Numbered from the stretch's first letter, positions 13,636 to 62,817 are shown. The stretch is DNA of 64,000 nucleotides from Bdellovibrionota bacterium (GCA_050952645.1 JBMNLI010000017.1:196970-260969); one strand, 5' to 3'. Numbers and translations are program-made. The notes: a model not told the origin generated them from the sequence alone.

Positions 13636-13910
13636 GGTTCTTCACGTTTTAGGTGGGTTAGAGTCTATCTTCTAATTTAAATTGACAAAATTATTTTACA
13701 AAACTGTTGTTGTTTTATTAAAATAATAGTTAATTTTATTGGTAAAATAAATATTAGAGTTGTTAGGAAAAGTTATCCATAACTGATAGCTTGGCCCCAG
13801 CAATAAAAAGCTAAAGGTCAAGCTGTCAGGCTGTGGATAACTTTCACAAAGACTCCATTAAACAGAATGGCGTTTTGTTTCTCTAGGGGGCCATTTAAAA
13901 CGTGAAGAGC
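13636..13910. repeat. MITE-like element, subfamily 1 (275 bp), TIR GGTTCTTCACGTTTTAGGTGGGTT / CCATTTAAAACGTGAAGAGC; internal DnaA-box-like pair
   Basis: Near-identical copies at 42116..42381 and 62576..62817; internal TTATCCATA and TGTGGATAA. Confidence 0.8.
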
Positions 13911-13982
13911 TAAAAGTTTGGGTTTTATCTTAGGAATATCAACAAAGCTCTGTAATAGAACTAAAATTTTTAGCTAAAAAGA

Positions 13983-15128
13983 TTACTCAAAAATACAAGG
14001 AATAATTATCCTAACCGTAGTTCCTCCTAAGTCTCTATTTTGAATTTCTAGACTACCCCCATGAGCTTTTATATACTCATCGCAAATAAACAACCCTACC
14101 CCTAAGCCTTGTTGTTCTTCTATTTCCCTATCTATTTGTGTAAATAATTTTAAAGCACTTTGCGCTTTCTTATCATCAAAACCTATTCCTCTATCTTTAA
14201 TTTCGATAACCGCATTATTTAATTCCTTAAGTAAATCTATTTCTATCTTAATTTCACCATTAGAAGAAAGCAAACTCGAAAACTTAACTGCATTTTCTAA
14301 CACACGCTCTATCACATCTTTAAAATATACATCATAAATATGCACATTTACGCCACAGCTACAATCTATTATTTCGATATCTATATTTATTTTATTTTCG
14401 AGATTATTTTTAAAATCACTTACTATATCATTTACTAAATCTTTTAAATTATATTTTTTAGATTTTTTTTCTATCTCTTTTTTATGAATTCCTATTTCGA
14501 GTTGTTGCAAAGTTAAAAAATTAGCTATCAATCTTTCTAATCTTTCGCTTCCTTCAACCATTGAATCTAAAAGCTTACTTATTTTTGTATCATCAAAAGA
14601 GTTTCTTCTATCTATTAAAAGCTGAGAAGTGCTTTGAATAGCGTAAAGTGGTGTTCTAAACTCGTGCGACATAGTGTGTAAAATTCTTTTCTTATTTTTC
14701 TCTAAATCTTTTTCTATCGAACATCTTAAATCGTTTACTTTTTTTAACTTGCCTTTCGTTATTGAAATAATCTCATCTGCGTTATACGGTTTTATTATTA
14801 TATCATCTACGCCTAACTCTCTTAATTTATTTAACTCATCTTTATCATCTAGAGAGGTGAGCACTACTATTTGCATATCATAGTAATCTTCAGAAGATTT
14901 AACACTCTCACAAAACTTAAAACCATCTAAAACGGGCATTAGCAAATCGCAAAATACCAAATCAAACCTTTCCTCTTTAATAAGTTCTAAAGCCATTTGC
15001 CCATTATTTGCGCAAGTTATAGATACATCTAAAGTGCTAAGCAGTTTTTTTAAACTATCTTGAACTAAAAAATTATCATCTATTAGTAATATGGACGGTT
15101 TATTATTTAACAAAATATTTTCCCTCAA
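13983..15128 (-). CDS. Hybrid sensor: N-terminal response-regulator receiver domain fused to HisKA plus HATPase kinase core
   Basis: LLIDDN...DLVFCDLLMP receiver motifs; HEFRTPL H-box; G-rich ATPase boxes. Confidence 0.8.
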   Translation of the reverse strand: MRENILLNNKPSILLIDDNFLVQDSLKKLLSTLDVSITCANNGQMALELIKEERFDLVFCDLLMPVLDGFKFCESVKSSEDYYDMQIVVLTSLDDKDELNKLRELGVDDIIIKPYNADEIISITKGKLKKVNDLRCSIEKDLEKNKKRILHTMSHEFRTPLYAIQSTSQLLIDRRNSFDDTKISKLLDSMVEGSERLERLIANFLTLQQLEIGIHKKEIEKKSKKYNLKDLVNDIVSDFKNNLENKINIDIEIIDCSCGVNVHIYDVYFKDVIERVLENAVKFSSLLSSNGEIKIEIDLLKELNNAVIEIKDRGIGFDDKKAQSALKLFTQIDREIEEQQGLGVGLFICDEYIKAHGGSLEIQNRDLGGTTVRIIIPCIFE

Positions 15129-15217
15129 GTATAATATAATTTAAGATATAAACTATTATATGCTTTTAAAGTCGGAAAATATAAGTAAAATCTTAAGGTG
15201 AAAGCCCCCTCACAGAA

Positions 15218-16201
15218 TTATATTGAAAAATCCCCTATATTTCTAAATTTTAAGTACCTTTTTTTAGTTAGCTCTTCGATACTTAATTTTTCTAACTCTT
15301 TTAAATTCCTAAATAATGATGATTTTAACACTTCTGCCATTTCTTTATAATTTCTATGTGCACCCCCTAGAGGCTCTTCGACTATCTCATCTATAATGCC
15401 AAATTTCTTTAAATCCTGTGAAGTAAGTTTTAGAAGCTCTGCCGATTGCTTAATCCTATCTAAAGAAACCTCCTCTCCATCTTTTCCCCATAAAATCGAG
15501 GCGCATCCTTCAGGAGATATAACTGAATAACAAGCATTTTGAAGCATAAGCACTCTATCTGCAACGCCTAGAGCTAAAGCACCACCACTTCCCCCTTCTC
15601 CTATTACTACCGAGATTATTCGAGTTTTTAATGTAGACAAAATCTCTAAATTTTTAGCGATAGCTTGCGCCTGTCCCCTTTCCTCTGCCTCTATCCCTGG
15701 ATAGGCTCCCGCAGTATCGATAAAATTTATAACCGGCAAGCCAAACTTTTCTGCCATAAAAAACAATCTCTGAGATTTTCTATACCCATCGGGTTCAGCC
15801 ATTCCAAAATTACGCTTTAATCTTTCTTGCATGTCTTTTCCACGTTGATGCCCTATAACTATAACGCTTTTACCAGATAATTTTGCTAACCCTCCTACGA
15901 TAGCAGGATCATCTCTAAAGCACCTATCTCCATGAAGCTCTACAAAATCTGTAAATATAAGGTCTATATAATCTAGCGTTAACGGTCTATTTTGATGGCG
16001 TGATATTTGAACTTTTTGATATACAGAAAGCCCTTTATAAGTTTCTTTTCTTAATTTCGATACTTTCTCTTCTAACTCTGCATAATCTTTTCTTACCTCT
16101 TCATCCCCAGCATTTAAACGTTCCCCGAGTTCTGCTAGCCTAACTTCTTGCATTATTAGTTCCTTTTCAAAATCTAGTGGGTTTTTTATTACATTATTCA
16201 T
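15218..16201 (-). CDS. accA: Acetyl-CoA carboxylase carboxyltransferase subunit alpha
   Basis: Full-length AccA-like sequence (327 aa). Confidence 0.9.
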   Translation of the reverse strand: MNNVIKNPLDFEKELIMQEVRLAELGERLNAGDEEVRKDYAELEEKVSKLRKETYKGLSVYQKVQISRHQNRPLTLDYIDLIFTDFVELHGDRCFRDDPAIVGGLAKLSGKSVIVIGHQRGKDMQERLKRNFGMAEPDGYRKSQRLFFMAEKFGLPVINFIDTAGAYPGIEAEERGQAQAIAKNLEILSTLKTRIISVVIGEGGSGGALALGVADRVLMLQNACYSVISPEGCASILWGKDGEEVSLDRIKQSAELLKLTSQDLKKFGIIDEIVEEPLGGAHRNYKEMAEVLKSSLFRNLKELEKLSIEELTKKRYLKFRNIGDFSI

Positions 16202-16267
16202 TTTATTTTCAAACTCCTCTTAAAAGTCTTCATTTCTAAAATTTTTAAGCGATGCTAAAAGCCTTTT

Positions 16268-17320: not shown

Positions 17321-17364
17321 TTTGCCTTAAAATATTTATATATTATTTATATATTTATGATTTT

Positions 17365-18387: not shown

Positions 18388-18406
18388 TTTTTTATATTAA
18401 CAAAAA

Positions 18407-33584: not shown

Positions 33585-33975
33585 ATTTAAGTTAATTGTT
33601 TAAGTTAATTATCAAGACTAATTATCTATACTAAATTATCTATATTATTATTAACAGAGCAAATTATTAAAAATATACTATCAATAAGCATTGCTTATGC
33701 GCTACTAACAAAAATTAGTTCTTCACGTTTTAAGTGGGGTAGGAAAAAAATTGTTTCTTTAATTAGCTTAAAAGAAAATTGGCTTTGATAGAAAACTAGC
33801 TATAAATTAAAAAAAAATGACAACTATATTAAAAGTCAATTTTCTTTTGGCCCCCGTGGTGAGTGATACTAATCTTTTAGAGTTTAAAATCACTTTGAAA
33901 CGTGAGGAACGTTTTTAGTTCTTCACGTTTTAAGTGCGGTGGAAAAAAATGTTTCTTTACTACGTTTAAATTTTT

Positions 33976-36575: not shown

Positions 36576-36789
36576 ATAAAATTTCCTTAAATCTTTTTTA
36601 AAAACTAACCTTTCTTTTAATTTATTTTATTTAAAATTTATTTTTTAAAACTTTAAAGCTCTTAATATTTTAATCTAATCTTAATTTAGAGAGCAAAAAT
36701 TCTCTTTAGTATTTACACAACCGCTCTTTAAATCCTTTAAAAAAATATCACCTTTAGACATACCTTAAAACGTCAAAGAACCTAAAAAT

Positions 36790-37073
36790 TAGCTCTTCAC
36801 GTTTTAAGTGGGTTAAAGTCTATCTTCTAATAAATTGACAAAACTATTTTGTTCTTCACTTTTAAAGGTGATTTAAGACCTTAAAATTAGTATCACTCAC
36901 CTCACGAAGCCCAAAAGAAAATTGACTTTAAAGGAATTGGCATAAAATAAATTAACTTTAAATATAGCTGTAATTTTTTTTTTGAAACTATAGTTAGTTT
37001 TATATAAAAGTCAATTTTCTTTTAAGCTAACCTAAAAAACAATTTTTCTAACCCACTTAAAACGTCAAAGAAC
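36790..37073. repeat. MITE-like element, subfamily 2 (284 bp), uninterrupted; contains the intact intron target CACGAAGCCCAAAAG
   Basis: TIRs GCTCTTCACGTTTTAAGTGGGTT / AACCCACTTAAAACGTCAAAGAACC; copy at 48078..48302. Confidence 0.8.
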
Positions 37074-37200
37074 CTAAAAATTAGCTCTTCACATTTTAAG
37101 TGGGTTAAAGTCTATCTTCTAATAAATTGACAAAACTATTTTGTTCTTCACTTTTAAAGGTGATTTAAGACCTTAAAATTAGTATCACTCACCCCACGAA

Positions 37201-39097
37201 ATAGGGTAGAGCGAGGGCTATACCCTCTCCCTCCCGTCGCACCGTACGTACGGGTCTCGTATACGGCGCTCCATTAATATAATATCAAGTAATACTCAGG
37301 TAATACGTCAAAGGGTCGATTAAACCAATTCGTTCCTTTGTTTTACGCCCCAATATTTTAGGGCTTAATGCATAATTCACTACGTACCACGAACTGCGTC
37401 TATACCAGCCGAGTCTGCTGTTAGCAACCTTATAGATTTCTTCATTTCTAAAATTGCAACCAAGCATTCGGTTCAATTTCTTAAGATTTAGATAGATTCG
37501 TCTCGGCAATTTCCACTGTTTAAGTATTATAACCCTCACTTTGTGTCTAAGCCATTGACCATATTTATCTATAAAAGTCTTAAGAGTTCCTATCTTATAA
37601 TAGTTTATCCAACCTTTAATTAACCAGCTTAGCTGTTGAAATGTCGAACCTAACGTTCGTGCCATTGCCTTCCGTCTACAAAGAATTTCTCTAGTTTTAT
37701 CATAGAGTTTTCGTTTGCGATCTTCAGCAGGTTTACATTTCCAAGTTTTATACCCACTCTTCCAGTAGGTAAAGCCTAAGAAAGTGCTTTCCGTCGGCCT
37801 AGAGATTTTACTCTTACTTGAATTAATTTTAAGTCGTAGCTTACGCTCCAACCAACTCGCAACGGACTTCATTACTCTATTAGCAGCCTTTTCACTTCTA
37901 ACAAATATATTACAGTCATCGGCATATCTAACAAACTTAAGTCCTCTTGCTTCCAGTTCCTTGTCGAGTCTTATCAAGGTATATGTTAGATAATACTGGG
38001 GATAATGGACCTCCTTGCGGAACTCCTTTCTCACTTACAGTAAACAATCCATCTTCCATTATACCAGCTCTTAAGAACTGTCTTATCAATCGTAGTGTCT
38101 TCGCATCTTTGATGCGTTCCCTGATTATCGAAATTAATTTGTCGTGATTAACAGTATCAAAATATTTCTCTATGTCTAGGTCTATAACCCAATCATAGCC
38201 TCTTTTCAAGTACTCAAGAGTTCTATATACTGCTAGATGGCAATTCCTTCTAGGTCTAAAGCCATAGCTACTATTACTAAAATACTTTTCGTATCCGCGT
38301 GCTAGTATTTGCGCTACCGCTTGTTGAATTACCCTATCTACTACTGTAGGTATTCCTAAAGGTCTCATCTTACCATTAGCTTTAGGTATATACACTCTCT
38401 TAACTGGACTCGGCTTATAATTCCCTTCACGTATCTGAGATTTTATCTCTTCTCTGTGAACGGCAAAATAGTCTTCAAGCTCATCTACTGGCATATCATC
38501 TACACCAGATGCACCTTTATTTCGCTTAAACAGCCTTTATAGCCTCATCTATATTTTTGTCTGATATAATTAGTTCAATCAATTCCACCTGTTGCTCCTC
38601 CCTCTGTTTGTAAAGCTACTAGAAAACACCCCCTCTATCTTCTGCCCCCACAGGTTACGTTCCTGTTTGTTAGGCATATCCTTCAATTTCGGACTCTTCT
38701 AGCCTTGCTTACAGTGATTCACAATATATTAACGTTCAACCCTTCCTTGAGTGGTGTCTCAAGTACTATGGTATCAACTGACTTCCAGATATAAGCTTTA
38801 TATCGCACGTGCATAGCACGCTATCTGGACCTCCCGGGGTAAGGCATAGTTCTTTCACCAGACAACCTCCAGATTTACTCGTTTGGTTTTACGTTTGTCT
38901 TTAGGGCTTCGGTTTGTAGCGCAACCTCACCCACCATTTAGCCTTGTATCTGGTTTCTGTTCGTAGGCTCCTTGGTTTTGATCCGCCACTTCCTTCACTC
39001 TAACATTACTGCTTCGAGCTTGTGGCATCACTACACTTGGTGACAACTACCCGTGACGGGACTTTCACCCGCTAGAACTATGTCGTGCCCGGCACAC
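37201..39097 (-). mobile_element. Bacterial group II intron (about 1.9 kb) with 5' GUGUG and 3' ...CUACCCUAU boundaries, no En domain; inserted into a MITE
   Basis: Boundaries defined by alignment with the uninterrupted MITE copies; RT/maturase ORF inside. Confidence 0.8.
37285..38494 (-). CDS. Group II intron-encoded reverse transcriptase/maturase, split into two ORFs by a +1 base in an AA run near 37985
   Basis: RT domains (RPLGIPTVVDRV, GVPQGGPLSPVLSNIYLD | RLDKELEARG, YADDCNIF) and maturase domain X. Removing one A restores ...NIYLDRLDKELEARG... Confidence 0.8.
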
Positions 39098-39270
39098 GCC
39101 CAAAAGAAAATTGACTTTAAAGGAATTTGCATAAAATAAATTAACTTTAAATATAGCTGTAATTTTTTTTTTGAAACTATAGTTAGTTTTATATAAAAGT
39201 CAATTTTCTTTTAAGCTAACCTAAAAAAACAATTTTCTAACCCACTTAAAACGTCAAAGAACCTAAAAAT

Positions 39271-39990
39271 TTAAATATTATATCTACAAGATATAAAATA
39301 TCTTAACTCTTTATTACTAATATTTTTTATGTTTTCTTTTTTATCATCATAAATAAGCACACCATCATTTAAAGCTAATAGATGACTAACAACTGGAAAA
39401 AGTCGCCTTAAATCGTGGCTTACTATAATCATCGTTAAGTTATATTCTTTTTGTAAATTAGATATTAACTCCATAATTACTGCGCTAGCTACTGGGTCTA
39501 GCCCACTAGTAGGGTCATCTAACAAAACTACGCTTGGGGTAGACACTAGCGCTCTTGCTAGAGATACTCTTTTTCGCATACCACCGCTAAGCTGTCCTGG
39601 CATTTTTAAATAACTATCTTTAAGCCCTACCTTATCTAGTATATCAAATATTTTGTAAGTATAATTTTTTCTTTTTTCATCACTTAAAAGCGATAAAGAG
39701 TTTCCTCTAGTAAGTGGAAAAAGAACATTATCAAAAACGTTCATCGAATCGAAAAGTGCTCCTTCTTGAAACATAAGTGAAACGTCGCTTTTATTTTTTA
39801 TACCAAGGTCGAAAGTGCCACTATCTTGCTCATATATTCCTGCAAGAACTTTTAGCAAAACGCTCTTTCCAGAAGCGGTAGGGCCTATTAACCCTGTAAT
39901 TGTGCTAGCTTTTAAACTAAATGAAACATCTTTTAGGGCTTCAACATTGCTAAATGATTTCGTTATATTATTAACTTCTATATTTTTCAT
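39271..39990 (-). CDS. ABC transporter ATP-binding protein (single NBD, MlaF/Ttg2A-like size)
   Basis: Walker A GPTASGKS, signature LSGGMRKR, Walker B LLDDPTSGLD; no permease gene adjacent. Confidence 0.8.
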   Translation of the reverse strand: MKNIEVNNITKSFSNVEALKDVSFSLKASTITGLIGPTASGKSVLLKVLAGIYEQDSGTFDLGIKNKSDVSLMFQEGALFDSMNVFDNVLFPLTRGNSLSLLSDEKRKNYTYKIFDILDKVGLKDSYLKMPGQLSGGMRKRVSLARALVSTPSVVLLDDPTSGLDPVASAVIMELISNLQKEYNLTMIIVSHDLRRLFPVVSHLLALNDGVLIYDDKKENIKNISNKELRYFISCRYNI

Positions 39991-42032: not shown

Positions 42033-42115
42033 AGTCGATTTTCTAGTTCTTCACGTTTAAAGGGGATTAGAAAAATTGTTTTTTTAAGGCTAGTTTAAAA
42101 TCTCTTAAAAAAAAT

Positions 42116-42381
42116 GGCTCTTCACGTTTTGAGTAGGTTAGAGTCTATCTTCTAATGTAAATTGACAAAATTATTTTATGAAACTGTTGTTGTTTTATTA
42201 AAATAATAGTTAATTTTATTGGGAAAAATAAACATTAGAGTTGTTAGAAAAAGTTATCCATAACTGATAGCAAGACCTAGTAATTAAAAGCTAAAGGTCA
42301 GGCTGTGGATAACTTTCACAAAGACCCCATTAAATAGAATGGCGTTTTGTCTCTCTTAACCCACCTAAAACATGAAGAACC
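42116..42381. repeat. MITE-like element, subfamily 1 (266 bp), 3' of the csp gene
   Basis: Collinear with 13636..13910; TIRs GGCTCTTCACGTTTTGAGTAGGTT / AACCCACCTAAAACATGAAGAACC. Confidence 0.8.
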
Positions 42382-45094: not shown

Positions 45095-46520
45095 TCAATT
45101 AAGTTTACTAAAAACATCTTTGTGTTCTCTAAGAAAATTTATTGCCGCCGATTTAGCATCTAAGTCTTCATTTTGGTTTTTAGCTATTTGAAGCCATTTT
45201 AAAGCTTCTTTTTTATCTGTCGCTACGCCTTCTCCATTAAAATACATCATGCCGACATAAGCGGCACCTCTAGGATTCCCTTGATCTGCAGCTTTTTTAG
45301 CCCATTTAAATGCTTCTTTAAAATCTTTAGAAACTCCTTTCTCAATTATATACATATTAGTTAAAAAAAAGCTGGGCAAGTACGCTTCCACGCTCCGCAC
45401 CTTTTTTATACCATTTTACAGCTTCTTGATAATCTTGAGGAACTCCTTGACCAAGTTCATAGACAATGCCTAGGTTAGTCAATGCGTTAGCATTTTCTTT
45501 CTTAGCAGCTTTTCTATACCATTTTATCGCTTCTTTATAATCTTTTAGAACGCCTGCTCCTAACCTGTACATGCTTCCTAAATTATCTTGAGCTATAGCA
45601 TCTCCTTGCTCTGCGGCTTTTTTATACCACTTAAATGCCTCTTTATTATCTTTAGGAATGCCCTCACCATTTAAATACAAAGAACCTAAATCATTTTGAG
45701 CAATAGCAAGGCCTTGCTTGGCAGCTTTTTTATACCATTTAACAACCTCTGTATAATCCTTTGAAACACCTTGCCCATTTAAATACATCAACCCTAAATT
45801 ATACTGAGCTATGGCGATTCCTTTCTCTGCGGCTTTGATATGCCATTTTGCCGCCTCTTTATAATCTTGAGAAACTCCTTGTCCTAAAAAATACATATTA
45901 GCTAAATTAAATTGAACATTCACATCGCCTTTTTCAGCAAGAGTTATGCAAGAGTTTAATTCTTCGGAGTTAAGTTTTATATCATCTACGTTAAAGTCCT
46001 TTTTATTAAACTCGATTTTCTTTTCTGTTAAAGGGCAAGCTATTTTTTTTCCGCCGCAAGAGTAGAATAGTATTAGGAGTAATACGATTGTGATTGCAGA
46101 TATTTTTATAATTTTTTTATTTTTGCATTCGTTATTTTCTTTATTTATATTTTCTTTATTTATTTTTTCTTTATTTACATCGCTTTTATTTACATCTTTT
46201 TTATTATCGATAAATTTATTATCATTAAATTTATTATCGTTATTTTTATTACTTATTAAATTGCTAGTTTCTCTATCGTTTATTTCATTTTTAAAAACCT
46301 CACTAGCTTTTTTCCATAAAAAAGTTTCTAAGTTATCATCTTCTAAGCTGTTATCTAAAGTGCTACTAGCTAAAGTGCTATCATCTAAAGCACTACTATT
46401 TGAAATTAACGTATCTTTACTTATTCTACCTTTTTTAATTTTTTCTAAAATTTGAGATTTTGAAAAACCTCCTACTGGTTTTCCATCGATAAGCATATAG
46501 TAAATATTATTATTTTTCAT
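45095..46520 (-). CDS. Sel1/TPR-like repeat protein with N-terminal TM/signal and N/K-rich linker; split into two ORFs by +1 base in an A8 run at about 45362-45372
   Basis: Seven or more Sel1 units (GxGVxxDxxEAxKWYxKAAEQG). Removing one A gives ...AQLFLTNMYIIEKG..., in phase with the repeat. Confidence 0.75.
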
Positions 46521-46585: not shown

Positions 46586-47971
46586 CTACTCTTTAAAATA
46601 CTTGTCTAAAAACATTCTTCCTAATTGCGATGCGGTTTTCATAAACTTTCCATTATGAACTATTACTATAGCTACCGCAATTTGTGGGTCATTTGATGGA
46701 GCACTCGCTATAAACCAATTCGTAAGCCCTTTAGGATTATCTCCATTTAACGTGCCAGTTTTTGCCGATACTGGTATTTCAAAATTTCTAAAATATTTTT
46801 TAGAAGTCCCCGAAGTAGTCGTCTTTGCCATCATTTTTAAAAGCTCATCGGCCGTGCCCTTATTCATAACTTCTTGCAGAACTTGCGGTTTGCTTTTATA
46901 GAGAATCTCCCCCGTTGGCGCTACGACTCTACTTATCATATAAGGCTTTGGAATCACCCCCTTGTTAGCGACACCTGCCATAATCATCGCAGCATGAAGC
47001 GGACTTATGCGAACATCTCCAAACCCTGCACCAGTTCGACTAAGCTCATAATCTCCCTCAGGAATATTAGCTTCACTACTAGGCTGTATCATATCAAACG
47101 GAAGCTCCTCATTAAAACCAAACCTATTTGCATAATTCATCAAAGTCGCTTGATTTAAATATTTTAACGCCACTCTACCAAAAACAGGATTACAAGATTT
47201 TCCTAAAGCATCTGAAAGAGACATATGCCTTTTATCTAACTTACCACTAGGGGCATAATTATACTTATTTAATATATAATCGCTTCCCCTATACGCTATG
47301 CGAGAATCTGCACGCAGAACTCCAGCCTCTAAAGCTGCCGTAGCAGTAACTATCTTAAATAACGAAGCCGCAGGAAGCCCAGCATACAATTCAAAATTAG
47401 GAATATCTGAAAGCCCATCCATTGCTACAACTCTTCCCGTCTTAGGTTCTAAAGCTACTAGTGCTACGTGTGGCACCTCTGCTTGTTCTAAAATACTCGT
47501 AGTGTAACTTTGAAGTTCTGGGTCTAACGAAAAAAACACTATATTTCCAGCACGTGAAACCGCCTTTAAAGATTTCTCCGTCTTATACAATTCTTCATCA
47601 AACGACGGAATCTTAGTTAACAAAAATGAATTGTCTTTTAAATTTACTAAAAGCTTAACTGGAGGAAATTTCTCTAAGCTACCTAACGCCTTAATATTCA
47701 TTCTAGGTTTAGGAGCTTCTTTTTTAATATTAGTTTGAACTATTAGTTTTTTTACACTATTAGATGGATTGTGAAATCCAAAATAGTAAATGGCTATAAA
47801 AGCAGGTACGAAAAAACAAGATATAAAAGCTAAATACGAAAAAATTTTTTGCTTCTTTAATTTATACCTCTTGCGTTTCTTAACAACCTGCCCCTGAAGA
47901 CAACTTGGTTTATCACTTTTAAAAAAATTCATCATAATTACAATAAAAAGGTAAATAAAAAAATTCTTCAC
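46586..47971 (-). CDS. Class B penicillin-binding protein transpeptidase (PBP2/FtsI-like)
   Basis: SxxK (ASLFK), KTGT motifs; N-terminal TM; 461 aa (start uncertain). Confidence 0.7.
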   Translation of the reverse strand: MKNFFIYLFIVIMMNFFKSDKPSCLQGQVVKKRKRYKLKKQKIFSYLAFISCFFVPAFIAIYYFGFHNPSNSVKKLIVQTNIKKEAPKPRMNIKALGSLEKFPPVKLLVNLKDNSFLLTKIPSFDEELYKTEKSLKAVSRAGNIVFFSLDPELQSYTTSILEQAEVPHVALVALEPKTGRVVAMDGLSDIPNFELYAGLPAASLFKIVTATAALEAGVLRADSRIAYRGSDYILNKYNYAPSGKLDKRHMSLSDALGKSCNPVFGRVALKYLNQATLMNYANRFGFNEELPFDMIQPSSEANIPEGDYELSRTGAGFGDVRISPLHAAMIMAGVANKGVIPKPYMISRVVAPTGEILYKSKPQVLQEVMNKGTADELLKMMAKTTTSGTSKKYFRNFEIPVSAKTGTLNGDNPKGLTNWFIASAPSNDPQIAVAIVIVHNGKFMKTASQLGRMFLDKYFKE

Positions 47972-48077
47972 GTTTTAAGGTGTTTTTAAAACCTCAAAAT
48001 TAGCATCACCCTTAAAGCTCTTAAAGCACTGGCTTTAACTCTTAAAATTATCATCAATTATTTATCATCAATATTTA

Positions 48078-48302
48078 GGCTCTTCACGTTTTATGTGGGT
48101 TAAAAACCTTTAAAATTAGTATCACTCACCTCGACGAAGCCCAAAAGAAAATTGACTTTAAAGAAATTTGCATAAAATAAATTACTTTAAATATAGTTGT
48201 AATTTTTCTTTAAACTATAGATAGTTTTCTATAAAAGCCAATTTTCTTTTAAGCTAACCCCCAATAACAATTTTTTCTAACCCACCTAAAACGTGAAGAA
48301 CC
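48078..48302. repeat. MITE-like element, subfamily 2 (225 bp) between kdsA and the PBP gene; partial solo end at about 47965..48010
   Basis: TIRs GGCTCTTCACGTTTTATGTGGGTT / AACCCACCTAAAACGTGAAGAACC; intact CGAAGCCCAAAAG site. Confidence 0.8.
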
Positions 48303-48333
48303 ATTATTTATCATCAATCGCTTATCATCTATT

Positions 48334-49193
48334 TTACGCTATTTCTCTAATTCTTAAAAGCCTATCTATTAAGCTTGGAAATTCCTTAAGTGGCACCATA
48401 TTAGGCCCATCACTTTTAGCTTTTTCTGGCTCTGGGTGAGTCTCAAAAAACAGCCCATCGCAACCTATCGCCATTGCACATCTTGCTAGAGGCTCTACTA
48501 AGCTTCTATCCCCACCTGAAGCATTTCCTAGGGCGCTCGGTTCTTGCACGCTATGCGTCGCATCGAAAATTACTGGTGCTCCAAAAGATTGCATCTTAAC
48601 TACTCCCTTAAAATCGTTTACTAAGCGTCCATAACCAAAAAAAGTTCCTCTCTCACAAATCATCACATTTTTATTCCCCGTACTATTAACCTTTTTTATA
48701 ACATTTATCATATCCGTAGGTTGCATAAATTGCCCTTTCTTAATGTTTAAAGGCTTATTAGTTTTTCCTGCAGCTAAAAGCAGATCCGTTTGTCTAGCTA
48801 AAATGCTGGAATCTGAAGCACATCACAAACATTGGCCACAATTTGAGCTTGATAGCTTTCATGAATATCTGTAATTACGGGAAGCCCCGTTTCTTTTTTA
48901 ACCTTTAATAGAGCGTTTAACCCCTCTTCGATACCTATACCACGAAAAGAATCTATGCTAGTTCTATTAGCCTTATCGAACGAGGCTTTAAATATAACAT
49001 TTATATTACGAGTTTCTTTTAAATTACTTAAAACATCGGCAATTTTTAGCAAGATTTCTTCGCTCTCTATAACGCAAGGACCCGCAATCAATAATAAAGG
49101 CATGCCCTTTCCAACTTTAAAATTTGCTATATTAACTATATTATTAGTATTTAATTCCATTTTTTCACATCCTTTTAAAAATATTATCATCAA
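48334..49193 (-). CDS. kdsA: 3-deoxy-8-phosphooctulonate (KDO8P) synthase, split by a 1-base deficit in a T run at about 48797-48801
   Basis: N-terminal ORF ends ...QIPAF*; adding one T gives [33 protein letters not shown]..., continuous with the C-terminal ORF. Confidence 0.85.
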
Positions 49194-50018: not shown

Positions 50019-50091
50019 AGTTCTTTACGTTTTGTTTTAAAATTCTCAAAATAGCACTATCCTACCTACACGCCTAAAACGTGAGAAAACC
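50019..50091. repeat. Miniature (73-bp) derivative of the MITE family: two TIR-like ends with a short spacer, 3' of rplS
   Basis: AGTTCTTTACGTTTTG ... CGCCTAAAACGTGAGAAAACC. Confidence 0.5.
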
Positions 50092-50653: not shown

Positions 50654-50995
50654 ATGAATACAAAACTTAAGTATAACATAATAAAAAGAAAAAAGAAAAC
50701 TTTAAGGCCTAAAGAGGATCCTAAAAAAGAAGAAATAATAAAAAAAATTTCAGATATTTTCGATGAAAATGGCTACAAAGTGCGTAGGGAAAAATTGCAT
50801 CAAGGTTTCGGCTGGAAAGCGATAAGTGGTTCTTGCAGAGTTAACGATGAAAATTTAATTTTTTTAGATAGGAAGCTTGGGCAAGACGATCAAATGATTT
50901 TTCTTATGCTACAAATAAAAGAAAAAGACCTTGGCATGCCTAAAGATTTGCTTTTAGAAATACCAGATAAATTAAAAAAGATAGCTAAAATCTAG
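50654..50995 (+). CDS. Hypothetical basic protein (113 aa)
   Basis: ORF only. Confidence 0.35.
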   Translation: MNTKLKYNIIKRKKKTLRPKEDPKKEEIIKKISDIFDENGYKVRREKLHQGFGWKAISGSCRVNDENLIFLDRKLGQDDQMIFLMLQIKEKDLGMPKDLLLEIPDKLKKIAKI

Positions 50996-51848
50996 AGTTA
51001 AATCTCAACAAGTGTTCTTTTGCTCCATTTAGTGTATCTCTAGTTTTATTATTTTTAGTTATCACTACCCTATATCTAATAGAGTAAATCCCTTTATCCA
51101 TATTTTTATGTCTATATTTAACATTAGTATGATAAGTTAAAATCTTTTTTCCAAGTTTAAAAAATTTATCTTTTACACCATTTCTTTTTAATTTTCTTAT
51201 ATGTATTAAATATTTAAATCTCGCATTATTTCTTTTTTTATTCTTTCTAATGGTAGCTTTTAAAACTTTAGGAAGTTTTATAAGTAGAGCATTTCTATTT
51301 TTTAATTTTTTAATTTCTGGCCTTGGCACTTCCATTCTTGGATATGCAAGCTTTATTGCATTAGAGTTTCTAGGCGTTTTAGTTGGTGCAGCGGTAGGCG
51401 TAAAACTAGGAGTAAAAGTAGGCGTAAAAGTAGGAGTAAAAGTCTGCGTGTTTGTAGGGGTAAAAATTATCGTGCTAATAGGCTCTATGGTAGGAGTATT
51501 AGTTTTAGTAGGAGTAGATGTATAAGTAAAGCTTGGTGTGCTAGTATTTTCTGGCGTTATAATATTAGTAGGAGTGAAAGCATACGTATTAGTATTATTT
51601 AAAGTAGGAGTTGGTGTAAAAGTAGCGGTAGCTGTAAGAGTAGGAGTAAGGTTAGGAGTTTTAGTAGGCGTTAGTGTGGGAGTTAGAGTAGGAGTTGGAG
51701 TTAGAGTCCATGAGTATCCTTTAGGAGTTTCATCGCAACCGTTTTCTAATGCATTAAATCTTTTAATGTTAAAATCTGCAAAAGGATCGTCTTCTGGTTC
51801 ATCATCTACGCAATCATCTAAGCAGTTTATTATTCCATCGCCGTCCAT
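50985..51848 (-). CDS. C-terminal fragment of the IS-disrupted RCC1/Ca-binding/TP-repeat surface protein (DxDxDG motif, TPT repeats, basic tail)
   Basis: The frame stays open upstream of the ATG through the IS boundary and is in phase with the 53725..56345 gene once the IS and one TSD copy are removed. Confidence 0.7.
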   Translation of the reverse strand: MDGDGIINCLDDCVDDEPEDDPFADFNIKRFNALENGCDETPKGYSWTLTPTPTLTPTLTPTKTPNLTPTLTATATFTPTPTLNNTNTYAFTPTNIITPENTSTPSFTYTSTPTKTNTPTIEPISTIIFTPTNTQTFTPTFTPTFTPSFTPTAAPTKTPRNSNAIKLAYPRMEVPRPEIKKLKNRNALLIKLPKVLKATIRKNKKRNNARFKYLIHIRKLKRNGVKDKFFKLGKKILTYHTNVKYRHKNMDKGIYSIRYRVVITKNNKTRDTLNGAKEHLLRFNSRF

Positions 51849-51931
51849 ATCATCAGTGTTTTTATAAGTTCTACCGTAATACTGGGCTTGCTTACCGTAA
51901 TAAGTAACCTTAACTTTGCAAAAAAGTTCAC

Positions 51932-53167
51932 CTAAAATTTTTTTTGTAATTTTTTATTTATTTGAGCAGCTTTTAATCTTACCTTATCAGCATCTATATC
52001 AAACGCATTTAATATAGTTTTTTGTCTTTTGCTTACTGCATAGCTCAGCTGATATAAATCCTTACTCCCTCTTACCATTTCAATTTTTTCAAGTTCTTTT
52101 AATGCGGCAGGAACATTCATATAGTTTGGCTTTTTTGTTAGCTTAGAAAGTTCTTCATTAAGTAGAATATAAATGCGATTGCGAATTATAAGTGCTATAA
52201 ACTCTATAAAAATTTTAGCAGATACTGCCTGAGATGAATGAACTCTCATACTTTTTGAGCCTAAAAAAGTCTTATCAATAGCAAAAAGTTTCTCAGTTGC
52301 GTCTCTACCCTTGTAAAGTATTATAGCTTCTTTAGCACTCATTTCTTCCGAACTAACAAGACAAAAATACCCACATAAATTAAGAGCCTTTTGAATTTCA
52401 TCTGCTCTCTCTTCTACTTTTCTTAACTTTCCTTGATTGTCATAACTTAAATCAAAAAATTGCTTATACGTTTGTCCAAACTTTGTATCTTTGCCAATAT
52501 GGTTTTTTAAAAATTGTTCAAACTCCTCTAATTTAATTTCTAGTTGCTCCCTCTCAAATGCTTGCTTTTCCGCACTAAAATAAACATGAAAATAACGCTC
52601 CTTACTATCATCATCATATAATTTTGATTTCACTGTAGTGCCATATACCTTGTATAAGCGAATACTACAGTCTCTTTTAGACTCAAATGTATTCCTGTTT
52701 TCTTCTACTAATTTAGAAACTAAAGCCTTACACCCTTTTACCATCAATAAAAAAGAAAAACCACTATTATCCATATATTGAATATTATATTTACTAAAAT
52801 AACCACGGTCTAAAATAAATCCTATCTTTTTATATCCATACTCTATAACCTTATCTGCCATATGAGTAAATTGAGAAACGTCTGTAATAGAACCAGGATA
52901 CTCTTCGTAAAATAACGGAACTCTATTCGTTTGATCAAAGGCAATGGATAAATTAAATACTGGGAATCCTTTTTCGTCTTTCGCTTTACCAAACTCTACT
53001 AATTCAACATCACCTGCTTGACAGTTCTTATTAGTCGAATCATATGAAACGTAAACCATTTGATTGCGATCTTTTCCCTTGTTCCAATCGTCAAGAAAGT
53101 TAATTATCTGCTCTTTGCTAACAGAAGAAAGAAAACGACTTATGGTAGAATCACTATAGATGCGCAT
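51932..53167 (-). CDS. IS1634/IS4-like DDE transposase (C-terminal 411 aa; frame open upstream to about 53290 without an ATG)
   Basis: Transposase-like sequence; upstream extension ...SQYYPDYAFSHPLF is paralogous to the end of the 53332..53622 ORF. Confidence 0.7.
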   Translation of the reverse strand: MRIYSDSTISRFLSSVSKEQIINFLDDWNKGKDRNQMVYVSYDSTNKNCQAGDVELVEFGKAKDEKGFPVFNLSIAFDQTNRVPLFYEEYPGSITDVSQFTHMADKVIEYGYKKIGFILDRGYFSKYNIQYMDNSGFSFLLMVKGCKALVSKLVEENRNTFESKRDCSIRLYKVYGTTVKSKLYDDDSKERYFHVYFSAEKQAFEREQLEIKLEEFEQFLKNHIGKDTKFGQTYKQFFDLSYDNQGKLRKVEERADEIQKALNLCGYFCLVSSEEMSAKEAIILYKGRDATEKLFAIDKTFLGSKSMRVHSSQAVSAKIFIEFIALIIRNRIYILLNEELSKLTKKPNYMNVPAALKELEKIEMVRGSKDLYQLSYAVSKRQKTILNAFDIDADKVRLKAAQINKKLQKKF

Positions 53168-53331
53168 ACCTTTTGTAAAGAGTGGATGAGAAAAGGCGTA
53201 GTCTGGATAATACTGACTGACATTCTCTTCATTTACAATAAAATAACTCGCTAAATCAAGTATAAGTTCACTACGTTCACCAAAATGTTTTTTTTAGTAA
53301 AAAAGGCAAATTAAATTCATTTGCTACTTTT

Positions 53332-53622
53332 TCAATCACCAAGTGGGGGACCTATACGAAGACAACAACTGCGTGAAGCGTCTGAAAATTTCTCGGGCAT
53401 AGGGGCATCTGGAAAATAATTACTATAATTGTCATTAGGGTACATAATATCATCTCTACCATCAACTAATTTTCCAATAACGCTACGCTTTGGATTAGTA
53501 TACTGTTTCTCTTTATTATAAGTGCGATCGTATTCAAAAAGCACATATTTTGCTTCCCCTTTTTCTCTTATAATTATTTTATTTCTTTGCTCTGGTAATG
53601 GAACTGTTCGATTGTAATTCAT
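53332..53622 (-). CDS. N-terminal transposase fragment (96 aa) of the same IS or a diverged second copy
   Basis: IS1634-type N-terminus; ends ...NYSNYFPDAPMPEKF, homologous but not identical to the upstream extension of the main transposase ORF. Confidence 0.5.
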   Translation of the reverse strand: MNYNRTVPLPEQRNKIIIREKGEAKYVLFEYDRTYNKEKQYTNPKRSVIGKLVDGRDDIMYPNDNYSNYFPDAPMPEKFSDASRSCCLRIGPPLGD

Positions 53623-53724
53623 AAAACCTCCTTTAGGTTAACGGTTGCACTAAAAGTATAGCATAGTAAATACACAGATGCAAGTAAAAAAAATGCATAA
53701 TTTAACGATTATTTCTTATTTATT

Positions 53725-56345
53725 TTAATTGATTATTTGTTTAGGTGAACTTTTTTGAAAAGTTAAGGAAGTAAAAGTAGCATTATCATCTAGATTAGGA
53801 CATTGGTCGTAAGGGTCTAAAACTTCATCTCCATCGTGATCGTTTATATCGCAATAATTTTCAGTAAGAGTTTTACATCTATAAACTCCCTTTCCTATAA
53901 CATCATAAGTAATGCCACCGATTACTATTTCGCCAGTTTTTTCCGAACACTCTTCCCCTATAAAAAAATCTTCATCGATACGACCATCGTAATCATTATC
54001 TAAACCATCACAAAGTTCAGGCTGTGGCTCAGGCGTATACGTTGCCGTGTTAGTAGGTGTATTAGTCGGCGTGTTAGTAGGTGTATTTGTTGGCACCGTC
54101 GGCGTATTTGTAGGAGTATTTGTAAAAGTATGCGTGAATGTAGGAGTAAAGGTAGGCGTAAAGGTAGGCGTTGATGCGGCGCTAGATGAACTACTATGAA
54201 AAGAAGTAGTGCTACTACTGCTACTACTAGGAGTACCATTTGGTGAAGAACTACTATGAAAAGAAGTAGTGCTACTACTGCTACTACTAGGAGTACCATT
54301 TGGTGAAGAACTACTATGAAAAGAAGTAGTGCTACTACTGCTACTACTAGGAGTACCATTTGGTGAAGAACTACTATGAAAAGAAGTAGTGCTACTACTG
54401 CTACTACTAGGAGTACCATTTGGTGAAGAACTACTAGATTGCACATTACCTTGCGAGCTAGCACTACTACCACCTCCAAAAATAATTATACCGTCTCCAT
54501 CCATATCTCCAAACCCTAAACCTTTCATCATGCGTTTACCGTCTGAAGAAAAATCTTCATCTATTTTTCCATCACAATCATTATCTAAGCCATCATAAAT
54601 TTCTAAGGTTTTCGCATCCATATTCGCTTGTGCATCACACAAAACAGGACTATCAGATATTAAACCAGCACAATAATATTTTCCATTTTCAAGGCATACT
54701 CCAAGTCCAGCAGAGCAACTTAAATTTATAGAAGAATACAAACTATCTTTACAACAAGCAGGCGTATTTGCACTACAAACTATCAGAGGCTCTTCTGTGT
54801 CTCCATTGTAGCAAGTTAGCACTCCCTCTCCTAAACATTGATTAGCTAAACCATTATCGCACTCTTTACCTAAGTTTGCATAATTCCAATGCGTAGAACA
54901 ATTAGTAGGAAACATTAGAGCTTCCCCTCCTAAGAATATCTGAGTAGGCGTTTGTCTAGAAACTTTAGTGCCATCTCCAATTTGTGCTAAAGTATTATTT
55001 CCAGTGCTGTAAAGTTTTCCAACCACATTTATTATATATAAATTATTGCTAACATTTATAATACGTTTTACATCACTAAAAATAAATTCAGGTGTTTTTT
55101 GATTAATAGTAGTATTATTCCCAATTTGTCCAAAATCATTTTTTCCAAAACAGTAAAGATTATTATCACTCGCAACTACGCAAGTAGAATTGCTAGCAAG
55201 CGACATACTATAAACACCGTCTAGGACTTTATAAAACGGACTAGAAACGCTATCCCCTTTTCCTATTTGTCCGTAATTATTAGCGCCACTACAATAAAGC
55301 TTATTCTCGTTAGTTATAGCGCAAATATGGTACTCTCCTATTGAAACTTGTTTTATATCATCTAAAACTTTTAATGGTGCTGAAACTTTGCTATCTTCTT
55401 TTGCGTCGATCGGCTTATAAGTAGCATTATTATTTCCCCAACAATAAAGCGTTCCGTCTACTTTTATAGCACAAGTATTAAGGCTAGTTATACTAACATT
55501 GCGGACATTTTCAAGCACTTTCTTAGGAGTATTCACGGAAGCGCTTAAAGTTCCGCTACCTACCTGACCAAAGCTATTTCCTCCCCAACAAAAAAGATCT
55601 CCATTAGTTTTAATAGCACAAGCGTGCGCAACTGAAGAATTTTGCAAAGACACATAACTTACATCATCTAAAATTTTAATTGGAGATACCACTCGAGAAC
55701 TAAAAGTGCCATTTCCTACATTTCCAACTTCATTATAGCCCCAGCAATATAGCGCTCCTAAAGTAGTTATAGCACATGTAGTCCACCCTCCTACTGCCAC
55801 TTGGCTTATATTAAGCTTAGGAAGTATCAACTTAGGTGTAGTCTCGTAGGTAGTATCCCCCGAGCCTAATTGACCATAATCATTTTTTCCAAAACAATAA
55901 AGCTTGCTATCTGAAATAGCACAAGTATGATCATAGCCTACACTAACGGCACTTACATTTGTAAGCCCCACAATTTTTTTAGGAGTCGATACGTGATAAT
56001 CTTTAGATGTTATTTGACCATGTTCATTTAACCCCAGCAGTAAAGTTCTCCACTTACAGAAATAGCGCAAGTAGTGCTCCCATTACTTGCTACCTGCTTT
56101 ACGCTATCTAATATAACGCTATCTAATATAGGGGCTGATGCAAAACAAGGACTATTAGAAAATATTATGATAAATAAAAAGATAAATAAAAATAAGAAAA
56201 AATTAGAAAGAAAACTAGAGAATCTTTTTATAGTTTCTAATGGTTTTCTACTATATATTTCCTTACTATATATCTCGTTATATACCTTATCATATATAGA
56301 GGGAAAAAAATTCAATAAGTTATGTTCTTTTATGATAAAATTCAT
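53725..56345 (-). CDS. Secreted RCC1-repeat protein with thrombospondin-type-3-like DxDxDG Ca-binding motifs and S/T/P-rich mucin-like linker; frameshift at about 56045 (TT for TTT); last 15 codons derive from the IS inverted repeat
   Basis: Signal peptide; RCC1 signatures (LYCFGKNDYGQLG, LYCWG.N..GQ); four perfect 60-bp tandem repeats; CDGLDNDCDGKIDED motifs. Confidence 0.8.
54181..54440. repeat. Four-plus perfect 60-bp tandem repeats inside the RCC1 protein gene (encode SSSSPNGTPSSSSSSTTSFH units)
   Basis: Four identical 60-nt lines in the sequence. Confidence 0.9.
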
Positions 56346-59391: not shown

Positions 59392-59410
59392 AAAATATTA
59401 TTTCTAAATA

Positions 59411-59704: not shown

Positions 59705-59963
59705 CTTTTGCCTTCCTTGGCTAAAACAATAAAATAAACAATATAAATAAAATACATTAGAAGCTTATAAAAAAAATGAAATTTTTACAATAGTAATGTT
59801 TCAAAATAGTTTAGATCGCTATTTTACCGCTATATTATCACCTAATTATCACACATTATTACCAAATTATCACTATTTTGGCACTATTTATGCATAAAAT
59901 TAAGCTATATAGCCATATTTTTTTATTTTTATAAATATTATTTTAAATTATTTCTAAAAAACG

Positions 59964-61046: not shown

Positions 61047-61261
61047 AATAGAAATTTAAATAAGAATTTATAGAATAAACATTTTAGTAAAACATTTTAG
61101 TAAAATACTTTAATAAAACTTAAATAAAAGTGCGAAGAACATCTACAAAAAATTATAAATAAAATGTCTACTGTTTACACAACATCAAAAAATATTATAA
61201 AATCATAATTCTTTAAAAAAATAAAAAAATGGAGAGTTTTATTTATAATGGATAAGATATA

Positions 61262-62506
61262 ATGGATAAAAAAAGAGTCGTAATAACTGGCTTAGGTTGC
61301 GTGTGTCCGTGTGGGAATAACGTATTAGATACTTGGAAAAATATTGTAAATGGAAATTCTGGAATAGATTACATTACTCAATTTTGCACGGATGATTTTC
61401 CAATAAAAATAGCAGGAAGCGTTAAAAATTTTAGAACAGAAGATTACATAGAACCAAAACAAATAAAAAAAACAGACTATTTTACTAGATTTGCTATCGC
61501 TGCTAGCAAACAAGCTATGCAGGATGCAAAATTAAGTGGAACTTCAACTTATAAGCCTGAAAGGATGGGTTGCATCTTAGGTATAGGAACTAGTGGCATT
61601 CGAGTATTAGAAAAATATTGCGATGCTTATAGAGAGGGTGGCGCAAAAAAAATATCGCCTTTTTTAGTCCCTGCTCTTATAAGCAATTTAGCAGCTGGTA
61701 ATTTAGCAATAGAACATGGGTTAAAAGGGATAAATTACGTTATAACTAGTGCATTTGCTTCATCTGCTCATGCTATTGGGGAGTCTTATAGAATGATTAG
61801 AGATGGCAATCACGATGTAATGCTAACTGGCGGAGCAGAAAGTATCATTACGCCTCTAGCACTCGGTAGCTTTGCAGCTATGAAAGCACTTGCAACGAAA
61901 AGCGATGACCCCAAGCGCGTCTCTAGACCTTTCGATGCTAAAAGAGATGGCTTTGTAATGAGCGAGGGCGGAATAATTTTAGTTTTAGAAGAGTATGAAA
62001 AAGCTAAACGTAGAGGTGCTAACATTTACGCCGAGATAATTGGTTATGGTTTTTCTTGTGATGCTTACCATATAACGGCATTACCTAAAAATGCAACGGG
62101 GGCTATCGCTTGCATGAATATGGCATTAAAAAATGCTGACATAAAAAAAGAAGATATCGACTATATAAATGCTCACGGCACTTCTACACCTATGAATGAT
62201 AAGACTGAAACTCTTGCTATAAAAAAAGTTTTTGGAGAACACGCCTACAAATTAAGCGTTAGCTCTACAAAGTCTACTACGGGACATTTGTTAGGAGCTG
62301 CTGGTGCTATCGAGGCTTTAGTTTGTGCATTAGTTATAAAAAATAATATTATTCCACCTACTATAAATTTAGAAAATAAAGATCCACTTTGCGATTTAGA
62401 TTATACGCCGAATATATATAAAGAAAAAAACGTAAGATACGCCCTTTCTAATTCATTTGGTTTCGGAGGAACTAACGCAAGCATTATTTTCAAAAAGTGT
62501 AGTTGA
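61262..62506 (+). CDS. fabF: 3-oxoacyl-[ACP] synthase II
   Basis: Cys-His-His active-site context; 414 aa full length. Confidence 0.95.
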   Translation: MDKKRVVITGLGCVCPCGNNVLDTWKNIVNGNSGIDYITQFCTDDFPIKIAGSVKNFRTEDYIEPKQIKKTDYFTRFAIAASKQAMQDAKLSGTSTYKPERMGCILGIGTSGIRVLEKYCDAYREGGAKKISPFLVPALISNLAAGNLAIEHGLKGINYVITSAFASSAHAIGESYRMIRDGNHDVMLTGGAESIITPLALGSFAAMKALATKSDDPKRVSRPFDAKRDGFVMSEGGIILVLEEYEKAKRRGANIYAEIIGYGFSCDAYHITALPKNATGAIACMNMALKNADIKKEDIDYINAHGTSTPMNDKTETLAIKKVFGEHAYKLSVSSTKSTTGHLLGAAGAIEALVCALVIKNNIIPPTINLENKDPLCDLDYTPNIYKEKNVRYALSNSFGFGGTNASIIFKKCS

Positions 62507-62575
62507 TAAAAAACAATTTAAAATTTCTAATTAACTAAAGGTCTCTAATGCAACGTGAGGCTCTATAAATTTTTA

Positions 62576-62817
62576 GCTCTTCACATTTTGAGTGGGTTAG
62601 AGTCTATCTTCTAATGTAAATTGACAAAATAATAGTTAATTTTATTGGCAAAAATAAACATTAGAGTTATTAGGAAAAGTTATCCATAACTGATAGCCTG
62701 GCCTAGCAATTAAAAGCTAAAGGTCAAGCTGTCAGGCTGTGGATAACTTTCACAAAGACCCCATTAAACAAAATTGCGTTTTGGTTCTCTCGGCCCCACC
62801 TAAAACGTGAAGAACCA
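62576..62817. repeat. MITE-like element, subfamily 1 (242 bp, internal 30-bp deletion), 3' of fabF
   Basis: Collinear with the 13636 and 42116 copies; same DnaA-box-like pair. Confidence 0.8.

Follow-up and report, generated by a model that had tools for sequence, protein, structure and literature searches.

Insertion sequences (ISs) of the ISL3 family begin GGCTCTTC and give 8-bp target-site duplications, the inverted repeats (IRs) of ISArsp7 reading GGCTCTTCGCGTTTCGTGGTGAAT (PMC6305408), and their 8-bp repeats are accompanied by a preference for AT-rich DNA (PMC3469429, PMC1590026). A 187-nt miniature inverted-repeat transposable element (MITE) of Microcystis aeruginosa combines GGCTCTTCG ends with 8-nt duplications and has been ascribed to trans-acting ISL3 transposases (PMC11448079). 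Group IIC introns follow a target rule in which a stem-loop is combined with a 3-4-nt intron-binding site 1 (IBS1) and a 1-nt IBS3 (PMC1702495, PMC10190682). The present analysis concerns a 64-kb stretch (JBMNLI010000017.1:196970-260969, hereafter the window) of an uncultured Bdellovibrionota genome of ~31% G+C, which carries a family of short repeats bounded by terminal inverted repeats (TIRs), one of them interrupted by a group IIC intron. The repeats are genuine miniature transposons without coding capacity, of a kind already known, and this Bdellovibrionota family is new. They are probably ISL3-type MITEs moved by an ISL3-family transposase encoded elsewhere, with the group IIC intron homing into the stem of one subfamily (MITE B).

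The Bdellovibrionota repeats resemble the Microcystis MITE in being short, non-coding, and multi-copy, in their stem-loop fold, and in having imperfect TIRs starting GGCTCTTC and 8-nt duplications. In contrast, the Microcystis element belongs to another phylum, has another interior, and is accompanied by matching ISL3 elements in the same genome. Neither an intron association nor a two-subfamily or chimera structure has been reported for it, whereas the Bdellovibrionota family has all three. ISL3-family ISs (ISArsp7, ISEfa11, ISKox3, and IS31831) share with the MITEs the GG(C/T/G)TCT... termini, IRs of ~24 nt, 8-bp duplications, and AT-rich targets; however, the MITEs are only 73-285 bp long, lack a transposase gene, and have an IR interior of their own. 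The family adds a Bdellovibrionota member to the few documented ISL3-type MITEs.

The intron likewise has close relatives. B.h.I1, E.r. IIC, and GsI-IIC are small, start GUGUGCC, encode an intron-encoded protein (IEP) of ~430 aa without an endonuclease domain, and are inserted a few nucleotides past a DNA stem-loop with a 4-nt IBS1, as is the case here. Their known sites are intrinsic terminators or attC, whereas the site described below is the central palindrome of a MITE, AT-rich, with a 17-bp stem and a loop of ~75 nt, and is used on both strands. MITEs of the Correia, RUP, BOX, and ERIC types are also dispersed, intergenic, hairpin-forming, and non-autonomous, and can carry promoters or affect mRNA stability. 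They are tied to other families, e.g., to IS630-type elements with TA duplications for RUP and Correia.

Anatomy of the Repeat Family

The original prediction, made from the sequence of the window, described a family of repeats sharing a 24-mer, and these repeats are real: GGTTCTTCACGTTTTAAGTGGGTT has 10 matches at three or fewer mismatches in the window as opposed to none in 100 shuffles. More degenerate ends were found through repeat families D5, D7, and D16 and by direct reading of the sequence. Copy ends were set by the conserved RGYTCTTC termini, and the predicted coordinates are correct to within 1-2 nt (Table 1). The copies occupy eight loci, all intergenic and with unrelated flanks. 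Every full copy has TIRs of 24-30 bp (GGYTCTTCACGTTTTARGTGGGTTA); the termini have the form GGYTCTTC, the end reading GG(C/T)TCTTCACGTTTTARGTGGG, and the IR interior ACGTTTTARGTGGGTTA is specific to this family.

Alignments bear out the predicted division into two subfamilies with the same termini and different interiors. Subfamily A (~245-275 bp) is represented in the window by 13636-13911, 42116-42381, and 62575-62816, with mutual identities of 88.8-93.1%. Subfamily B (~195-225 bp) is represented by 48078-48302, 36852-37074, and the reversed, shortened 33717-33911; identity among its copies is 87-99% within the window and 82.8-99.1% with metagenome copies (contigs L036 and L037) included. 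Chimeras, truncated copies, and one 73-bp mini element complete the family, whose members (73-285 bp) all fall under the 500-bp size criterion for MITEs. The longest open reading frame (ORF) inside any copy is 41 aa and unsupported, leaving no coding capacity and no usable ORF whose peptide could serve as a search handle. The copies fold far more strongly than shuffled sequences (z = -7 to -8), and the central stem of the reference B copy is formed by AAAAGAAAATTGACTTT and AAAGCCAATTTTCTTTT. The units are thus discrete and TIR-bounded, as had been proposed, as well as non-coding, and mobilization in trans by one transposase fits them.

Table 1. Coordinates of MITE copies, fragments, and the intron in the window (TSD, target-site duplication; RT, reverse transcriptase)
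Feature	Position	Strand	Remarks
Solo subfamily-B right end (...CTAACCCATCTTAAAACGTCAAAGAGCC)	9966..10005	+	Repeat family D16, sequence, alignment
Full subfamily-A MITE, 276 bp	13636..13911	+	Between convergent genes; TSD unrecognizable (4/8)
Subfamily-B MITE, reversed, 195 bp	33717..33911	-	Internal deletion; degenerate second TIR
Truncated second B copy (end fragment)	33917..33965	-	5 nt past the 33717-33911 copy
Right-end fragment opening the tandem array	36755..36782	+	Repeat family D16; followed by spacer TAAAAATT (36783-36790)
Chimera, ~60 bp of A-type left end and complete B (36852-37074)	36791..37074	+	Repeat families D9 and D12, alignment
Second chimera of the tandem array, intron-interrupted	37083..39263	+	99.1% identical to the first chimera
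Group IIC intron, 1,897 nt	37201..39097	-	Rfam matches; boundaries from the intron-free tandem neighbor
Intron-encoded RT/maturase (IEP)	37285..38588	-	Pfam RVT_1 and GIIM only; no endonuclease domain
Truncated B end fragment	42045..42100	-	12 nt past the csp stop codon; inverted-repeat pairs I4 and I13
Full subfamily-A MITE, 266 bp	42116..42381	+	Between converging csp and rlmN; no TSD
Truncated B left-end fragment, variant TTCTTCACGTTTTAAGGTG...	47965..48011	+	Repeat family D19, alignment
Full subfamily-B MITE, 225 bp, reference copy	48078..48302	+	TSD AATATTTA/ATTATTTA (7/8)
Mini element, 73 bp, B-type ends, interior deleted	50019..50091	+	Perfect 8-bp TSD TTTTTATT
Subfamily-A MITE with 34-bp internal deletion	62575..62816	+	69 nt past fabF; TSD AAATTTTT/ATTTTTTT (6/8)

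Several of the predicted units had to be redrawn. The element placed at 37082..39263 is a MITE copy (37083-39263) but not one plain element, being interrupted by the intron, and that at 36790..37073 is present but is a chimera of an A left end and a complete B copy. Two supposed solo ends, at about 33712 and 33905, are in fact the two ends of one shortened, reversed B copy (33717-33911), which pairs with the 48078-48302 copy as inverted repeats I1, I10, I17, and I18. The mini element stands as first described. The solo end at 9966-10005 lies 1 nt from the stop codon of a GT2 gene (10007-10972, minus strand; Pfam).

The tandem array (36755-39271) has a 292-bp period at 99% identity (repeat families D9 and D12). 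Its first chimera is flanked on both sides by TAAAAATT, and the further TAAAAATT that follows the second chimera (39264-39271) overlaps the stop codon of an ABC-ATPase gene. Truncated copies lie beside four full ones (33917-33965, 36755-36782, 42045-42100, and 47965-48011). Recombination and slippage between copies gave rise to the A/B chimeras, the tandem array with its shared 8-bp spacer, the truncated neighbors, and the mini element.

The original prediction called the family undescribed. ISL3-type MITEs as such have been published for Microcystis, whereas this particular family had no match in the collections searched or in the literature search. A BLAST comparison of the TIR with plasmids returned one chance match, and the TIR as a literature text string returned primers only.

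Two local observations concern individual copies. All three perfect DnaA-box 9-mers (TTATCCACA) of the window fall in the three subfamily-A copies (13832-13840, 42304-42312, and 62738-62746), with 0.5 expected by chance. Each is hairpin-paired with TTATCCATA, and a subfamily-A copy from a second Bdellovibrionota genome retains both. A MITE-borne spread of putative DnaA-binding sites is conceivable. The 48078 B copy sits inside a short array of TTATCATC(A/T)AT motifs (48030-48077 and 48303-48330). This array places the 16-nt ATTATTTATCATCAAT on both sides of the copy, the left one offset by 5 nt, a pattern not to be confused with a long target duplication.

Target-Site Duplications and the Mobilizing Transposase

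The original prediction had left target-site duplications to be checked, and 8-bp duplications are found at four of the seven testable loci. The mini element is flanked by TTTTTATT on both sides (8/8), and the tandem array shows TAAAAATT before, between, and after its units (8/8 three times). The 48078 copy has AATATTTA and ATTATTTA (7/8), and the 62575 copy has AAATTTTT and ATTTTTTT (6/8). For random intergenic 8-mer pairs, the probability of an 8/8 match is 4.5e-4 and that of at least 7/8 is 3.6e-3. Every recognizable duplication is 8 bp long and consists entirely of A/T.

On the basis of the ISL3-like ends, the 8-bp duplication, and the Microcystis precedent, ISL3 is most likely the mobilizing family. 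The comparison ends were read from annotated elements on plasmids and anchored on the motif. ISEfa11 ends in GGCTCTATAAT and GGCTCTTTGTC with the duplication AAGAAATG, an Enterococcus faecium ISL3 element ends in GGCTCTATAC and GGCTCTTTGTC with the duplication AAAATTAT, and ISKox3 has ends of the form GGGTCTTCCC...GTGGTGG with the duplication ATGCATAT. The MITE termini agree with the GG(C/T)TCTT... form of these annotated ends and of the published IRs. A Xanthomonas ISL3 element has a putative right inverted repeat, GGTTCTTCACCC, at the 3' end of its transposase gene. The first 10 nt of this repeat and of the MITE TIR are identical; the Xanthomonas end is tentative, being one motif match for which no matching left end and no duplication were found.

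In the proposed mechanism, the 24-30-bp TIRs would be bound by the transposase, which would cut at the GG termini and integrate the element at 8-mers made up of A/T only. The 8-bp target would then be duplicated when the staggered cut is repaired. The MITEs themselves would be deletion derivatives that retain only the ends recognized by a DDE transposase.

The absence of the cognate transposase from the window, as originally predicted, is confirmed: in tblastn searches of the window and related loci, seven ISL3 transposases had no match better than E = 1.6, and Pfam, applied to 56 of the 57 ORFs listed for the window (at least 80 aa), revealed no matching transposase, the 57th being fabF by homologue search. 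The window is nonetheless not free of transposases. An unrelated IS1634-family IS (51908-53768; NF033559, 223 bits) encodes one at 51932-53167 on the minus strand, has TIRs of ~29 bp (CCTTAACTTTKCAAAAAAGTTCACCTAAA) and a 6-bp duplication, AAGTAA, at 51902-51907 and 53769-53774, and interrupts an RCC1-repeat gene, whose two parts are 50985-51848 and 53725-56070. It was rejected as the MITE partner because its TIR and duplication length are unlike those of the MITEs.

The autonomous partner would be bounded by GGYTCTTCACGTTTTARGTGGG and encode a PF01610-type transposase. When collections of genome, metagenome, and viral contigs were scanned for an exact 19-mer, no Bdellovibrionota match, IS or otherwise, was returned, and the metagenome matches are chance matches within genes. 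The collections evidently do not hold contigs of this organism; contig L036 has the 19-mer pattern yet was not returned, indicating that relevant samples are missing from them and that the negative says little. About 20 matches in metagenome-assembled genomes of Actinomycetes and Acidimicrobiia (64-73% G+C) were considered as a lead to the transposase and set aside as unexplained, perhaps a coincidence. The motif in these matches, GAGGTCTTCACGTTTTACGTGGGG(A/T)CCACTTCACGTTTCGAGC, is AT-rich and often lies at contig ends (L001-L026; e.g., L008 2832-2853). In L001, L005, and L008, the GAGGTCTTCACGTTTTACGTGGGG motif stands at one end of a common element of at least 2.7 kb that harbors a 693-aa DDE-like ORF with a weak PF13751 match. 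This ORF has no NCBIfam match and no ISL3 match, and the motif has no inverted partner within 5 kb.

Several points weigh against the ISL3 assignment or against mobility itself. The searches yielded no autonomous element bounded by these TIRs, and the window has none. The duplication is unrecognizable at three of the seven testable copies (13636, 42116, and 33717), as would be expected if copies recombine or decay, and homopolymer indels in the assembly could distort the A/T-run flanks either way. No empty MITE site (presence/absence polymorphism) was obtained through the flanking proteins, so that mobility is deduced from anatomy only: these searches gave only contigs with the copy, or nothing, and the independent same-strain assemblies at the 62575 and 42116 loci likewise contain the copies. 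Finally, other families, e.g., IS6, also give 8-bp duplications and begin GG.

The last point leads to the strongest of the alternatives, in which the MITEs are moved by another DDE family with duplications of ~8 bp, such as IS6, IS256, IS1595, ISAs1, or IS66. IS6-family IRs indeed start GG (GGTTCTG... in IS257), and the missing ISL3 partner leaves room for such a family. However, the likeness to ISL3 extends beyond the GG dinucleotide: GGCTCTTC-CGTTT--GTGG is common to ISArsp7 and the MITE, GGTTCTTCAC is common to the MITE and the putative Xanthomonas ISL3 end, and the published ISL3-type MITE begins identically. IS6 elements transpose through cointegrates and are not known to leave MITEs behind. 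Mobilization by another family is therefore considered unlikely.

A Group IIC Intron in Subfamily B

The original prediction overlooked the group IIC intron and its tie to subfamily B. The intron has the boundaries GTGTGCC...CCCTAT, its 5' end GTGTGCCGGGCA resembling GTGTGCCAGGCA of B.h.I1, and it is inserted in MITE B between ...AAAGTCAATTTTCTTTTGGGC and TTCG. Its tandem neighbor at 36791-37074 is intron-free and thus displays the empty site. In Rfam, the intron matches RF02001 (106.7 bits) and RF00029 (42.1 bits), covering the D1-D4 and D5-D6 domains, and scores 34.7 bits with RF01998, slightly below the gathering score of 35 (E = 4.6e-4). The IEP frame is interrupted by two single-base insertions in this assembly; when corrected, the protein is 433 aa long and 100% identical to P0121 from Joint Genome Institute (JGI) metagenomes. 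Its nearest solved structures are 7uim (5e-107) and the GsI-IIC RT (6ar1, 1e-99), as compared with 2e-47 for LtrA.

The intron recurs in three JGI contigs (L035-L037), where it measures 1,894 nt, is 99.4-99.8% identical, and is flanked by MITE-B copies. In L036, it sits at the identical position within another B copy, whose flank and TIR variant differ, whereas in L035 and L037 it lies on the opposite strand of MITE B. All four independent junctions, on two strands, are located 4 nt past the 3' arm of the 17-bp central stem of MITE B. The first strand reads ...AAAGTCAATTTTCTTTTGGGC followed by T, and the other ...AAAGCCAATTTTCTTTTAAGC followed by T (L035) or A (L037). IBS3 is accordingly T in three of the four junctions, and the 4 nt between stem and intron are GGGC or AAGC.

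MITE B forms a long hairpin, and its inner 17-bp stem presents the order A-tract, stem, T-tract on both strands. As IIC introns recognize a DNA stem-loop and a 3-4-nt IBS1, and as the MITE-B core is a palindrome, both strands can be used and the intron occurs in both orientations. Junctions that obey the IIC rule on two strands make the MITE-B palindrome a bidirectional homing site. This is a clean natural case of a group IIC intron using a transposon hairpin, on either strand, instead of a terminator, and the adjacent empty and filled sites of a single tandem array are a ready substrate for mobility experiments. A literature search found no paper on a link between IIC introns and MITEs.

A promoter-like TTGACT/TTGGCT-N16-TATAGT is kept in the B copies on the minus strand (37014-36987, 39203-39176, and 48241-48214), ~80 nt upstream of the intron insertion point and on the same strand, and the palindromic stem gives a second TTGACT on the other strand. 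This promoter candidate may be a mere consensus match in an AT-rich genome.

MITE B could thus offer the intron a safe, multi-copy, two-strand site, a promoter-like element, and intact transposon ends, and the 2.1-kb composite of MITE and intron might itself be mobilized as DNA by an ISL3 transposase, a tentative and rather doubtful proposal. If it were true, the retroelement would gain a second, DNA-based route of spread, with IS, MITE, and intron forming three nested layers.

A sister group IIC intron with an IEP of 77% identity is found in the JGI metagenomes as well, in L047 at ~960-2885 (JGI 3300060823). It lies downstream of an ABC-transporter gene, 8 nt past the canonical terminator AAAAAACGGAC-CGGGTGT-GTCCGTTTTTT, and offers a comparison for target choice.

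Distribution beyond the Window

Confinement of the 24-mer to the window, which would have spoken against a dispersed family, is not observed, as copies occur in L034-L037. L034 derives from a second Bdellovibrionota genome (sample SRR31061295), in which a subfamily-A copy occupies another locus, 20 nt past an unrelated gene; the contig breaks inside the copy. This copy is 89-93% identical to the A copies of the window, equal to the range within the window, whereas FabF of the two species is 78% identical as protein and fabF 78.7% identical at the nucleotide level. The better conservation of the MITE suggests either recent, possibly horizontal, spread between two lineages of co-occurring predators or constraint.

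The strain of the window is also contained in the Logan assemblies ERR10905742 and SRR31061295. Same-strain short-read contigs (L027, L028, and L038) stop 40-50 nt inside copies, L027 and L028 ending 40 nt inside the 62575-62816 copy, which is the behavior expected of repeats. The family therefore explains the fragmentation of short-read assemblies at gene ends in this lineage.

Placement Relative to Genes

The copies were originally described as lying almost exclusively 3' of genes, with a possible second role as terminators or mRNA-stability elements. Of the eight loci, six are in tandem spacers, two in convergent spacers, and none in divergent ones, the available spacers numbering 33, 6, and 7, respectively. 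With a probability of 0.27 for finding no divergent locus, the 3' bias is not significant. Confinement to spacers is another matter, since only 42% of the A/T-only 8-mers are intergenic whereas all eight loci are (P~0.001), so that target preference has to be supplemented by selection against genic insertions. Genic insertions would be removed by selection, and the survivors would lie in spacers, often a few nucleotides past a stop codon. Six of nine copies lie at most 31 nt from a stop codon, several within 2-31 nt, in agreement with A/T-rich targets at gene ends.

A consensus scan, blind to AT-rich stems with large loops, found no canonical intrinsic terminator inside any copy, so the suggested terminator role is not borne out in general. 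The gene upstream of the 13636 copy has two terminators of its own (13445-13526), located before the element. The MITE-B core has the layout of a bidirectional terminator (A-tract, stem, T-tract), but its stem is AT-rich and its loop spans ~75 nt; a terminator role is accordingly possible for MITE B only.

The same data bear on a second alternative, in which the copies are host-maintained structured repeats, i.e., REP/BIME-like or dispersed terminator and mRNA-stability modules, placed for their function and spread by recombination. The strictly intergenic placement, the proximity to stop codons, the very strong folding, the conservation across species above that of fabF, and the A-tract/T-tract layout of the MITE-B stem, which was selected by a terminator-seeking IIC intron, could all be read in this way. 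However, the copies have defined GG termini and 8-bp target duplications, which are signatures of a transposase, and truncated, chimeric, and tandem copies resemble decay rather than maintenance. Orientation with respect to the upstream gene is mixed, the avoidance of divergent spacers is not significant, canonical terminators are lacking in the copies (with one upstream gene having its own before the element), and selection against genic insertions accounts for the distribution without any function. Host maintenance is thus regarded as improbable, somewhat more so than mobilization by another transposase family. REP/BIME-type repeats in the strict sense (imperfect palindromes of 20-40 nt that lack duplications and are associated with a RAYT transposase) were rejected, as the units are 73-285 bp long with TIRs and 8-bp duplications; an HUH/Y1-type (RAYT-like) transposase had no Pfam match in the 56 of 57 listed window ORFs.

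That the copies are assembly artefacts or pieces of one larger duplicated segment, the latter named at the outset as what would overturn the family, is very improbable: the 36755-39271 locus is indeed duplicated in tandem (292-bp period) and the assembly contains indel errors, but the unrelated flanks at eight loci, a divergence of 7-13%, and the recovery of copies from a second species and from independent assemblies of short reads effectively refute it. At ~8 loci per 64 kb, DNA of this family is not to be taken as regulatory without evidence.

Genomic Context and Assembly Quality

The genes of the window are ordinary housekeeping ones by Pfam (csp, rlmN, kdsA, lon, pyk, accA, flagellin, and CsrA/FliW), with fabF assigned by homologue search. 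Single-base indels occur in kdsA (48334-49193), in a Ski2-like helicase gene (33976-36575; split inferred from ORFs only), and in the IEP gene (37285-38588). The kdsA indel and the first IEP frameshift (a TTT run) lie in or beside a short homopolymer run, and an extra A in GATAAGACTC causes the second IEP frameshift. The window intron is 3 nt longer than the three independently assembled JGI copies, whose IEP is intact, and a 3.35-kb stretch of the window is otherwise identical to a short-read contig. The frameshifts are probably residual long-read assembly errors, not pseudogenes.

Two further genes contain internal repeats. The RCC1-repeat gene has near-perfect 60-bp tandem repeats at 54125-54484 (99% identity), and a Sel1 gene, present as two overlapping ORFs, has 108-bp Sel1-repeat units within 45095-46520 (repeat region 45180-45931).

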